Assembly: GCA_951406725.2 (NCBI GenBank)
Contig: OX597819.1
Location: forward strand, 6,262,001 to 6,326,000
Reading direction: 5' to 3'
Source: Octopus vulgaris
Taxonomy: Eukaryota
Length of the DNA: 64,000 bases
The notes under the pieces are model-generated. The model was not told where the DNA came from. It saw only the letters and a program-made list of their open reading frames with translations, and did no database searches. Shown here piece after piece: positions 40,015 to 44,950 of the stretch. Positions within the stretch are counted from its first letter, which is position 1. Every line of letters starts with the position of its first letter. The position numbers and the translations under genes are program-made.

Positions 40015-40901
40015 TGTATGTGCGTGTGTAATGCACCTGAGTTAGGAATTCTTTCATAGAATAAAGTCTCCAAAGTGTGTTTTTGTTACTAATATAACTG
40101 ATTTAATGCGTTTAGCGTAAGAAGCGTAGAAAAAACTGGGTTAACGGAATGAGCTGATGATATACTTCAAAACGTAATTTTGGTATGATTACATTATCTG
40201 ATTTCAATATTATTTTACTCTAATGTTTTATGTTGTTTTCTTTCAGTTTTTTTTTTTTTTCTCATAGAACTATTTCATTGATGGAGCAAGCTTTGTTAGA
40301 CAAGGTTTATATAGTTGTTTCTGTAAATTCAAAAGGCATATTCCCAATTTCCACAAGCTGTAATACTGAATTATTTCTCATCAAAAAGCAGCAATGTTTT
40401 TTTTTTTAATGTTTTGAGTGCATCACCAGGATGCTGATGTTCTATTCCTAGACGTAATGGGAAATTTAGAGTTGAACATTGTATTTAAGAGCGCAGTGTG
40501 CCTTAGAGCCCGTAGTATCTTCTTAGACGAATCGACAATTCACTTTCAATTTCACGCAGCAGTGATTTCACATTAATTAAGCCACAGATGTTCACAAATT
40601 AATTCTATTGTTACATTATATAGAACCTTATAACAGGGGAATGGCGGAATCAGCTGAAAGTAGGAGACGATGTTTTGTGCTATTGCTTTTGACTCTATTT
40701 CTGATTACATCTTGCAGAATTCAGCTTTGCGGTTCATCATTTCGAGATCGATAGAATAATGTACTACAGTAATCCATCGACTATCGCGGTCGTTACGTTC
40801 CAAACCTCTCGCGATAGGTGAAAATCCGCGAAGTAGAAACAATATTGTACTGTATATATATTTTATTATTATTTTTATAATCCGTATATATTTATCTCTT
40901 A

Positions 40902-41537
40902 CTAGCAGTATCGCCCGGCGTTGCTCGGGTTTGTAAGGGAAATAACTATATAAGCATTTTTAGAGAGTTATAGTCAAAAAATAGCAAAAAATGCATTAAA
41001 ATTGGAAAAAATATGATGGTAAATATTTTTTTAAATCGTTGACTCATCGTAGACATTTTTAGAGAGTTACTTCCCTTATATAATAGCGAAAAAATGCATT
41101 AAAATGGAAAAAGAACGATGGTAATTTTTTTTTAAATCGTAGACTCATGTAGACGCTTTCTTAGCCATTTCTGTTTTGGTGTCTTCAAGCCATTAAGTCG
41201 TTGTTCTTAAAGAACGCTGGTCTCATTGACAACGCATTACGACGTTGATTTCCTTACACTCCCTTCCCCACAGGTGCAGGTGTGAGCGTGGACGCCAACT
41301 CCGCCGCCATCGACACACGAAAAATTATGCATTAAAATGGAATAAAAAATGATGTTAAATTATTTTTAAAATCGTAGACTCATCGTAGACGCGCGCTAAT
41401 ACTCAGACGGGCTCGATATGAATCACGACTATAAGCTACCCGAATTTGGTTAAACTGCACCGCAAAATGTGGGAGTAGTTAGGAATCTAAATCGAAGGGG
41501 ACAGACACTCACACAACTACAGTTTTATATATATAGA
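40902..41537 (-). mobile_element. Non-autonomous Helitron family H1
   Basis: On minus: A|TC start at 41537, 3' hairpin cccgagcaacgccggg and CTAG|T end at 40902; homologous to 43880-44275. Confidence 0.88.
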
Positions 41538-41544
41538 TATACAT

Positions 41545-42150
41545 AGCGCAGTAGTGGTGAGATGTGACAGCAAAGAAAAGCATACATTCACTCTCTGCAT
41601 GCAATTAGACTCGAAAAGTTCGTGAGGAACCCATTGACCCAATTTGCTGACTTTTCCGATAGCACGCAGGTCTCAATGAATGGTTGAATGACCAAATCCA
41701 AGCTTCTCTGCTAGTTCCTCAACAGTTACGATGAGATTTTGTTCCACCAGGGTTTTCAGGATGTCCTTGTCGAGTTCTACAGATCTTTCAGGATGAGGCT
41801 CGTCTTCTAGGCTGTAGTTTATGGCTCGGAATTTCTGGAACCACCATTGACACTGCCTTACGCTTATTGTCCAATCCCCATATATTGCATTAATATTTCT
41901 TGTACTTTCCGTTGCGTTGTTGTCTTTATTGAACTCATAAAGCAAAATATGCCAAATATGCTCCTTTGTTACTTCCAATATAGCTTTGAAAAAATAGCTG
42001 TTAAAATCGAAATGCACTCTTCAAAACTTTCACTATGAATAAGGACAAGATAAAATTACTACCTGCTTTTATAGCAAGTTAATATAAGTAGTTTATCCCA
42101 TTCCCCTCTGACTTTTAGTTCAAGCTGTTGAAAAAAACCGCATTATTATA
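41545..42150 (-). pseudogene. Mariner transposase remnant (N-terminal half, one element end)
   Basis: ORF 41673-42017 EHIWHILLYEF...WFQKFR...LEDEPHPERS; reading past the stop reaches the hallmark QWVPHEL at about 41617-41637. Confidence 0.9.
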
Positions 42151-42156
42151 TATATA

Positions 42157-42188
<32 letters not shown>

Positions 42189-42279
42189 CACACACACTCT
42201 TTCTCTCACACACATGCACACATTTATATTCTGTTATTCTTTTATATGTTTCAGCCTTGAGGTTGTGGCCATGCTGGAT

Positions 42280-42321
<42 letters not shown>

Positions 42322-42555
42322 TATCTGTCTGTCTGTCTGTATGTATATATGTATATGTATGTGTGTGAACAATAATATTTTCAACAGATGTGTTGCAAAT
42401 GTATCTGATTGTTCTCAAGCTTCAAATTTACTCTCTTCCAAGAACATTTTCACTCACTCTTATTTGTTAGCTTCCCATACATTTTACTCATGTATCTATC
42501 AGCGTGATAGAGAGAAACAAATATTACATCTAGTTTCACTTTATTCGTTACACAG

Positions 42556-43038
42556 TGTGTGTGTGCGTTTGCGTGTGCTGTAAACCAGACTAAGAAAAGC
42601 ATTTGACACACACACCAGAATGTGAGTTTTCTGTAAATTTTGCTTAATTGGAGTTTAAATTTTAAAAACTGGACCTGGCATGACGCGATGCATTGTACTC
42701 TTAAAAATGCTAGGTAAATTGTAATTGAAGAAATCCTATATTGTAGATTTGTATAAGTACCAAAGGGAGGCAGATAAAATCTGCCTTTTATAATAAGAGA
42801 TTATAAAAGGCAGATTTTATCTGCCTCCCTTTGTATCTTATAGAAATCTACAATATAGGATTTTTTCAATTACAATTTACCTAGCATTTTTAAGAGTAGA
42901 ATGCATCGGGTGTGCCAGGTCCACTTTTTAAAATTTCAACCCCAATTAAGCAAAATTTAGAGAAAACTCCCATTGTGGTGTATATGTCAAATGTTTTTCT
43001 TAGTGTGGCTTACACCACACGCAAACGCACACACACAC
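42556..43038. repeat. About 480-bp imperfect palindrome with 5-bp spacer (AAGAG, 42795-42799)
   Basis: Arms pair from ...aggcagataaaatctgccttttataat / attataaaaggcagattttatctgcct... out to gtgtgcgtttgcgtgtg / cacacgcaaacgcacac. Confidence 0.93.
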
Positions 43039-43149
43039 AAACGGAGCGAACTGTTTCACTCACGCTATCACCCTTCTCCTCCTTTGTCTTTGCAAGTTGG
43101 CAGCTATTAAAGTGAAAACAGTGAATCCGACAGCGATAAAGAAAATGAA

Positions 43150-43771
43150 TTGGTACCTGAATGGAGTGAAAATTTAAAAACTGTTTCTTTCGGTGATTTT
43201 TCTGAAGAAACTGCACCAAGCCACAGACTTTCCCAGAAGAGTAAAGCCTTAAACTATTTCTATTTACTTTTTCGAATGAGCCTATTTAAAATCATTACGG
43301 CAGAAACGAACCGTTACGCTAAACGTAAACAAAACGAAAGAAAGGATAGTTTGTTATTTCCCACAACCTTAAATGAAATTAAGGCCTATTTTGCCATAAA
43401 TATTATTATGGGTATCAGAAAGTTACCCAGAATAACAATTCTATTGTAAAATTTTGTTGTATACCCAACTGAATATTAGCTAATAACCCATTTTCTATAG
43501 CGATGTTTGAACAAAATTTTAATTATTTTATATATTGTTGAATTTACCTGTATCTACCTGCAATTAGAGTCACTTTGTGACAAAAATTATAGTATAGAAT
43601 TGGTTGAGAACATTTCACTAAATGATCTTCCAAAAATCAGATTAATATATTCATAAATAAAAAAGTTATAGTTGTTTAATGAAACCAGACTAAATTTATG
43701 ATTACGTTAGAAATTAATTGAAACACATAAGGGGTGTATTTTGGTCAGAAATATAGTAACGAAAGGGTTAA
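43150..43771 (+). pseudogene. piggyBac (PGBD-like) transposase remnant with right terminus
   Basis: ALNYFYLLF..LFKIITAETNRYA...TTLNEIKAYFAINIIMGIRKLPRI resembles the PGBD4-like N-terminal region; ends aaaGGG|TTAA at 43765-43771. Confidence 0.85.
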
Positions 43772-43879
43772 GAAAAACCAAAAAATATTTTATTCTTTAT
43801 AAATGTTGTATTCAAAATAACATTTTCTTTTAAGAATGTGTATATAACAAAGTATGTGTATATAACTACGTGACTTATA

Positions 43880-44275
43880 TCTTTATATATAAGAGTGAAG
43901 TTGTGTGTCTGTCTCATACGATTTAGATTCCTAACTACTCCCACATTTTGCGGTGCAGTGTAACCAAAACCGGGTATCTTATAGTCGTGAGTCATATCGA
44001 GCCCTTCTGGGTATTAGCGCGCGTCTACGATAGTCTACGATTTAAAAAAATTTACCATCATATTTTTCCATTTTAATGCATTTATTTCGCTATTATATAA
44101 GGGAAGTAACTCTCTAAAAATATCTACGCTGTGTCAACGATTTAAAAAGAAATTTACCTTAATTTTTTTTCCATTTTTAATGCATTTCTTTCCTATTTTT
44201 TGGCTATAACTCTCTAAAAATGCTTATATAGTTATTTCCGTTACAAACCCGAGCAACGCCGGGCGATACTGCTAG
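43880..44275 (+). mobile_element. Non-autonomous Helitron family H1
   Basis: A|TC at 43880, hairpin cccgagcaacgccggg, CTAG|T at 44272-44275. Confidence 0.88.
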
Positions 44276-44744
44276 TTTTATTATAAATGCAAAACAATAC
44301 CACTCACTCGCCTCCCTAGTTTTGTTTTCCATACAGTATGTGCGATTCTTTGTTTACTCATGTACGGTATACTCCGTATTTTCTCTTAATATATTTTAAT
44401 TAATGTGTTATACAATGCAGTACTGTACTCTATTTTTATTTATTAATTTATTAATTTTTAAGCGTGAAAATGCTTATTTTACCACAAAGATAAAATCTGA
44501 AAAATATAAATACCTATTGGCCGTAGAACCCGCGATATACGGAGGAGTCCGCGATATAAATTTACATATGTTAGCCAGAAAAATCAGTGATGTACTGAGT
44601 GCGCGATAGGTGAACCGCAATGTTCTGAGTATGCGATGAGTGAATCACCATATGGCGTGAGATTACTGTATATGCTGAACTAGTGGGTCGATGTAACTGG
44701 CTACCCCACTTCTCTCAAAATTATTGGCTTTGTGTTATCCTGGC

Positions 44745-44950
44745 TAGAAATTTTGGCATAAGGCCAGCAAATTCAGGGGAGGAGATAAGTTGATTACTTT
44801 GACGCCAGTTCTCAATATTTAATTTATCGACCCCGGAAAGATTAACGGCAAAGTCAACTGCAGTGGCATATGAACTCAGAGCGTTAAGACGGATGAAATA
44901 TCGCAAGGCATTTTTGAGGCAAACTAACAATTCTACCAGCTCCCCTCCTT
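44745..44950 (-). mobile_element. SINE family C, diverged
   Basis: tttatcgaccccggaaagattaacggcaaagtcaac...gaactcagagcgttaagacggatgaaat. Confidence 0.75.

Follow-up and report, generated by a model that had tools for sequence, protein, structure and literature searches.

The question raised by this locus is how a decayed short interspersed nuclear element (SINE) in Octopus vulgaris came to contain a miniature inverted-repeat transposable element (MITE) that in turn holds two Helitrons, fragments of mariner and piggyBac transposons, and a palindrome. The locus lies in a 64-kb stretch of contig OX597819.1 (assembly GCA_951406725.2, positions 6,262,001 to 6,326,000), called the window below, the first letter of which is position 1 of all coordinates given here. 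The explanation that we favor, with good but incomplete confidence, is that the block inside the MITE consists of two chimeric Helitrons, R (outer) and L (inner), each made by end bypass, each running from TC to CTAG at an A^T target (the caret marks the point of insertion), and nested head to head. A first-pass annotation made from the sequence alone had suggested that the block arrived as composite units rather than by independent insertions; this holds, with two units, but the bounds of the units and the nature of their cargo had been misread.

Sequence data

The window is AT-rich, packed with microsatellites (142 rows), and contains no N. Evidence from outside it came from public contigs and reads of sequencing runs, here designated X1, X2, X15, X20, X21 and X22, that were aligned to the region; X1 is possibly the source sample. 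Contigs could be considered individually for 8 of 92,085 pieces in a first comparison and 32 of 36,493 in a second, with positions 42141-42371 and an AT run at 40853-40878 masked, and crossing of a junction was accepted with at least 31 bases on the short side. Summed bin depth is not equivalent to copy number, and single contigs were compared with single-copy flanks where possible. Protein domains were sought with Pfam in 79 of the 200 reading frames of the window.

The palindrome as two Helitron 5' ends

The 480-bp palindrome that the first-pass annotation had counted among the cargo is present (42555-43038, 90% identity between arms), but it is not cargo: on sequence evidence it is two 5' ends of a second type of Helitron (type 2) standing head to head. 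The parts concerned are these:

42426 to 42800, minus strand: type-2 5' end (left arm, 42800-42555) with about 130 bp of high-copy body
42801 to 43050, plus strand: type-2 5' end (right arm) from which the first 7 bases are missing, identical to the left arm at 227 of 244 aligned bases
40895 to 40901, plus strand: first 7 bases (TC start) of R, severed by L and identical to 42800-42794

Read on the minus strand, the left arm starts with TC at 42800 and is preceded by A. Behind 42801, seven X15 contigs run out of window sequence into an AT microsatellite, so the type-2 start is a true element edge; at the other side, other copies diverge before 42425-42428, and bin depth exceeds 24,000 in each of the four runs compared. 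The right arm matches the left from base 8 on, and its missing first 7 bases stand at 40895-40901 with A before them. Counted on both strands, the window has 17 occurrences of this 7-base word, and the chance of finding it at 40895 is 1e-4 to 5e-4, according to two estimates based on window frequency and on MITE composition.

Inverted duplication or template switching in place could also give a palindrome, and the arms do abut with almost no spacer. The arms nevertheless differ by 7%, as do the two type-1 Helitrons described below (Kimura two-parameter distance, K2P, 0.073 against 0.072-0.091), they continue into different high-copy sequences, and the missing 7 bases are 1.9 kb away, so that we give in-place formation almost no credence. 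The pairwise distances of the shared modules are all alike (K2P 0.072-0.091) and give no order of events.

As a separate observation on the type-2 body, the interval 42428-42484 is high-copy, and six X21 reads continue behind 42484 with letters resembling its start, which suggests that type-2 bodies hold a tandem unit of about 65 bases.

Type-1 Helitrons and the inner element L

The inner element and its parts are as follows, with the type-1 copy of R given for comparison:

40902 to 42800, minus strand: inner chimeric Helitron L, 1899 bp, from TC at 42800 to CTAG at 40902, at the first AT of R
40902 to 41537, minus strand: whole type-1 non-autonomous Helitron, long form, 636 bp, with internal repeats of about 100 bp; 3' end of L
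41538 to 42140, minus strand: mariner 5' part, the outer end near 42140 being approximate
42141 to 42425, no strand assigned: microsatellites and unassigned DNA, the sole candidate for true host sequence in the block
43880 to 44275, plus strand: whole type-1 non-autonomous Helitron, short form, 396 bp; 3' end of R

It had been correctly recognized that two oppositely oriented Helitrons of the same family end in CTAG at 40902 and 44275. Non-autonomous Helitron1 (HLE1) elements are characterized, in passages of PMC11417382 and PMC13286980, by a 5' TC, a 3' CTRR, a hairpin 10-15 bases from the 3' end and insertion between A and T. Both type-1 copies start with TC following A (41537 on the minus strand, 43880 on the plus strand) and end in CTAG preceding T, and the CTAG at 44272-44275 (plus) and 40905-40902 (minus) conforms to CTRR; a weak 6-pair stem of G and C, a possible hairpin, ends 11 bases before CTAG in each. 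The features of HLE2/Helentron elements are not seen, since each of the four junctions shows A^T insertion of TC and CTAG ends, not T-T insertion with short inverted repeats. A head-to-tail CTAG-TC junction (41533 to 40901) is found in an X1 contig at depth 186, so type 1 is a unit in its own right; such a junction is the product expected of rolling-circle copying, as set out in part of the Helraiser study (PMC4778049). Loose ends with low agreement among X1 contigs at 40900 (182 contigs) and 44287 (152) point to dispersed copies with sharp ends and unrelated flanks. No Rep or helicase domain that would mark an autonomous partner was matched in the frames scanned.

L stands at A40901^T42801, the first of the 149 AT sites of R, and its removal restores the type-2 start exactly. 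Read from its 5' end, the type-2 start is followed by the type-2 body, microsatellites, the mariner fragment and the whole long-form type-1 element, and L may have moved as one unit. The one-ended mariner and the one-ended piggyBac of the block had both been identified rightly. The mariner piece matches HTH_48 (E = 2e-19) over residues 8-141 of a 342-residue transposase, with homology ending 27 bases short of the type-1 start; the two terminal repeats and catalytic domain of an intact mariner were not found together, and the piece is a fragment. A protein search with it gave one match among 223 candidates. Elsewhere in the window a second mariner fragment, N-terminal only and a distant relative of the first, is present at 33838-34041 on the plus strand (HTH_48, E = 7e-12).

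The same composition could have been reached by stacking in two steps: a type-1 Helitron would have come first, and an element headed by type 2, its 3' end non-canonical, would have entered afterwards at the A^T that the type-1 start had created, so that the apparent chimera never travelled as a single piece. A Helitron start always re-forms A^T, and stacking is most plausible for L, for which the contigs give no support as a unit. It would require two hits at one base, twice over, and would-be 3' ends without CTRR and hairpin: the bases just before both type-1 starts contain no CTRR end and fold no better than shuffled sequence, so the inner parts do not resemble independent elements. For R, variant contigs across the junction in question, described in the next section, also count against stacking, and overall we hold it to be unlikely.

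Sequence of type 1 and type 2 does co-occur in other contigs (42801 to 40900 in X1; 41539 to 42506 in X15 and X2). In the X1 contig, at depth 147, a type-1 3' end and a type-2 start are a few AT bases apart, head to tail, and may be tandem chimeras or may share an AT-repeat target. The others, one contig each in X15 (depth 35) and X2 (depth 42), join the type-1 start to the type-2 body, apparently with no mariner between, and could represent a different chimera or a relative of L that lacks the mariner.

The outer element R and its copy number

R is interrupted by L, and its remaining parts are these:

40895 to 40901 plus 42801 to 44275, plus strand: outer chimeric Helitron R, 1482 bp, with CTAG before T44276
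43051 to 43771, plus strand: piggyBac-derived piece, in which a fragment of the transposase N-terminus lies at 43111-43446 and a single end, GGG followed by TTAA, at 43765-43771
43772 to 43879, plus strand: multi-copy spacer that separates the piggyBac end from the type-1 Helitron

The order within R is thus the type-2 start, the piggyBac piece with one TTAA end, the 108-bp spacer and the whole short-form type-1 element. The piggyBac piece matches DDE_Tnp_1_7 (E = 1e-9, profile positions 2-57 of 349) and is not an intact element, having one end, no other end and a partial transposase; a protein search with it returned no match at E 1e-8 among 111 candidates. Both R and L have the structure of a compound Helitron, with a type-2 5' end, a type-1 3' end in the same direction and an inner 5' end.

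Inner DNA of R is present at multi-copy depth. Summed bin depth over the spacer is 10,000-88,000 in four runs; an X1 contig inside the spacer has depth 1255 compared with 52-68 for the flanks; and an X2 contig running across the piggyBac TTAA into the spacer has depth 345 compared with 52 for a near-identical MITE contig. The junction between spacer and type-1 element is crossed by two different X1 contigs, one of which is found in X15 as well. The inner DNA and junctions of R recur at such depth in public contigs that R has probably been amplified into a family, with several to tens of copies at the least. A joint from 43438 to 43998 was set aside, as its sides were only 18-20 bases.

These depths bear on the suggestion that the cargo was captured genomic DNA, much of which is instead repeat: 42425-42555 and 43772-43879 are high-copy, and 42141-42425 is left as candidate host sequence. 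They also bear on the explanation that two Helitrons, a mariner, a piggyBac and a foldback element inserted independently and were later trimmed by deletion. All parts do come from abundant repeat families, as their depth indicates, and AT-rich repeats attract nested insertions; this history would, however, not account for the splitting-off of 7 bases, for the MITE resuming exactly at 44276 or for the multi-copy join of piggyBac end and spacer, and we consider it very improbable.

The SINE and MITE around the block

The layers outside the two chimeras are as follows:

40642 to 40766, plus strand: decayed SINE 5' part (profile positions 13-138, E = 5e-8), with a TA target duplication at its end (40765-40766)
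40767 to 40894, plus strand: MITE left arm with the terminal 8 bases; other copies join from it to 44276, and its end at 40894 is placed by the 7-base match
44276 to 44668, plus strand: MITE right arm, where contigs of other copies resume
44669 to 44734, plus strand: TA target duplication (44669-44670) and SINE 3' part (profile positions 151-200 at 44685-44734)

That a SINE was interrupted by the insert was borne out when, against a profile built from 7 other copies within the window, the computed empty site aligned across the join with 35.7 bits, compared with at most 22.6 in 30 controls in which the right part was shuffled. The MITE termini proposed at 40767 and 44668 are likewise real, with 8 identical terminal bases, decay beyond them, and TA on both sides (40765-40766 and 44669-44670). 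TA duplication and terminal inverted repeats fit the Tc1/mariner superfamily; the narrower label of pogo-like, taken over from the first-pass annotation, is tentative. Further window copies of the same SINE family are found at 44740-44950 (minus strand), 8516-8865, 13382-13556, 26098-26271, 48144-48315 and 63401-63570, and one of them stands tail to tail with the interrupted SINE.

Whether the two MITE arms are contiguous in other copies was a comparison proposed at the outset, and they are: X1 contigs of other copies jump from 40835 (2 contigs) or 40841 (6 contigs) to exactly 44276, so the left and right arms are one element. Removal of R leaves A40894^T44276 in the MITE, with the right edge matching intact MITE copies and the left edge inferred. 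The MITE arm thus ends at 40894, and joining 40767-40901 to 44276, as had been proposed, would carry along 7 bases of Helitron; in place of a 3.37-kb insert from 40902, the insert most likely begins at 40895 and spans 3381 bp from TC to CTAG on the plus strand. The CTAG ends once taken to bound the block are real, but outward-facing 3' ends are not its bounds, as each unit has a TC start.

In a repeat-dense region with inner junctions that the contigs considered individually do not bridge, misassembly has to be considered. The raw-read runs X20, X21 and X22 gave just 25, 166 and 0 reads, seem to contain little of this genome and were left out of the depth comparisons. Four exact junctions of Helitron type between copies 7-9% apart are nevertheless unlike the products of collapse or mis-joining. 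Both SINE/MITE junctions are moreover found in X1 contigs, the left at 40300-40831 (depth 52, one substitution and a 2-base gap) and the right at 44594-44774 (depth 68, no differences), although X1 may be the source sample. An assembly artefact seems to us scarcely credible.

Other features of the window

Elsewhere in the window there is no further copy of the MITE, of the type-1 or type-2 Helitron, of the piggyBac piece or of the spacer. Pfam identified no host gene in the 79 frames scanned, giving one mariner match and one pentapeptide-repeat match below its cut-off (22195-22398, plus strand), the translation of which resembles chance. Rfam gave 19 matches, all under curated thresholds and mostly on the palindrome or microsatellites, which were rejected as hairpin artefacts, and scans for exact motifs in viral contigs, metagenome contigs and prokaryote genomes gave no match. 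A four-base microsatellite of about 500 copies occupies 2 kb at 27600-29610. Just outside the SINE, 40240-40420 looks exon-like by eye, with a pyrimidine run and AG near 40268 and GT near 40306, and may be conserved sequence, as run X20, which contains few repeats, reaches depth 8 at 40397.

Discussion

The patterns described are consistent with end bypass operating twice on the same pair of ends. In such a process a type-2 5' end would serve as the start of copying, which would continue through the downstream DNA as far as the next type-1 3' end in the same direction. For L, the donor would have been a type-1 element inserted into a mariner; the copy would have stopped at the CTAG of the type-1 element within the mariner, which would account for the one-ended mariner, with the other half lying beyond the type-1 element and left behind. 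R, with its piggyBac piece, would have been copied on as a family, one member of which landed in the MITE. The insertion of L would have followed, on the opposite strand and at R's first AT, 7 bases inside its start, and would have created the palindrome. The order of events would accordingly be SINE, MITE, R and L; L is most likely the latest arrival, since it interrupts the 5' end of R and, in Helraiser, end cleavage depends on determinants within the terminal 40 bp (PMC4778049). In R the type-2 start abuts the interior of the piggyBac, and a deletion or switch has therefore probably removed any type-2 3' end there.

Several observations weigh against this explanation. End bypass is deduced from the structure of the elements rather than read off a donor locus, and the contigs gave nothing on L as one unit. 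The junctions at 40894/40895, 40901/40902, 42800/42801, 43050 and 44275/44276 are unbridged among the contigs available individually. Recurrence of the left inner junction of R (43050) is not part of the evidence, and five X20 reads diverge there. The letters of intact MITEs left of 44276 fall in the masked AT run, so that it is the 7-base match that places the boundary at 40895. The 3' hairpins of the type-1 copies are weak (-4.5 and -5.1 kcal/mol), 80 and 50 of 200 shuffles folding as well. The contigs that cross from the spacer into the type-1 element extend only 29 and 25 bases on their shorter sides, less than the 31 adopted here, and could be alleles, and depth at 43779 is uneven, at 213 in X1 (about 80% of the run read) compared with 6,489-72,672 in the other three runs. 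Finally, the 3' end of type 2 itself was never seen. Type 2 may also simply be a second kind of 5' end within one 3'-end family, and Helitron families with more than one left end are reported in a passage of PMC11417382.

The block as a whole also reads from TC (40895) to CTAG (44275) at A^T, and L could have entered R elsewhere, with the 3381-bp nested pair then jumping into the MITE in a single move. Nested Helitrons have been proposed to move as units in maize and Fusarium, in parts of PMC3288121 and PMC5148889. Only 7 bases of the 5' end would have been left in place, however, compared with determinants of end cleavage that are located, in the portion of PMC4778049 concerned, within the terminal 40 bp of Helraiser, and we think a single move quite unlikely.

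A broader possibility, for which we have some sympathy but which we doubt, is that Helitron 5' ends are preferred targets and that a type-2 5'-end family without a terminator routinely borrows the 3' ends of a commoner family. A transposase sitting on a resident 5' end would nick the opposite strand at the first inner AT, and a newcomer of the same type would be joined there. Two of the 149 AT sites of R fall in its first 10 bases. The purified Helraiser transposase is described in part of PMC4778049 as cutting the bottom strand of the left end at an inner AT in vitro, which could offer a route to targeted head-to-head insertion, though here for one case noticed after the fact. If 5' ends are preferred targets, head-to-head palindromes should be found genome-wide; if terminators are borrowed, fragments of cut-and-paste transposons would be spread by Helitrons.

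Compound Helitrons, double 5' ends, self-insertion and end bypass have all been published, and R and L are a further example, of interest as what would be a base-exact fossil of end bypass, twice with the same pairing of ends. For annotators, the implication is that palindromes of this kind and one-ended pieces of mariner or piggyBac can be parts of Helitrons rather than independent insertions, in a genome with 765,802 Helitron copies in 8 families (PMC13282606). With neither a host gene nor a function involved, the biological weight is small, but it would be greater if insertion at the 5' end proved to be a general targeting rule. A literature search, with most subscription literature outside it, returned nothing on these octopus elements or on a Helitron entering a same-type 5' end at its first AT, and the term "Helitron" is absent from PMC12988792.

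Among known systems, the silkworm families BmHel-6, -9 and -10 similarly combine pieces of two Helitron families, and section 3.7 of PMC3789558 mentions neither mariner or piggyBac cargo nor nesting. FoHeli elements of Fusarium oxysporum, in the portions of PMC5148889 concerned, have several 5' ends with one 3' end, and self-insertion in opposite orientation was proposed for them, one copy lying 2 bp from another; their termini are Helitron2-like with asymmetric inverted repeats, whereas those of R and L are canonical TC and CTAG. In maize more than one 5' end was reported in 17.6% of helA elements, with insertion near or inside other Helitrons and nested intermediates; maize Helitrons differ in carrying fragments of host genes, and insertion on the opposite strand 7 bases into a 5' end of the same type was not encountered in those passages of PMC3288121. 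Helraiser, in parts of PMC4778049, shares the A^TC and CTAG^T junctions and the head-to-tail junctions, and fails to stop at its 3' end in about 12% of events, or at least 36% without the hairpin; it is an experimental system with active transposase, whereas R and L are old and non-coding. The end-bypass model itself is credited, in part of PMC4224331, to Feschotte and Wessler 2001 and Tempel et al. 2007. HelibatN539 of vesper bats, described in the same pages, also joins one Helitron's 5' end, captured DNA and the 3' end of another Helitron in the same direction. It differs in that its donor locus was found and its cargo is a piece of a host gene, while R and L carry mostly transposon fragments between two ends that differ in sequence type.

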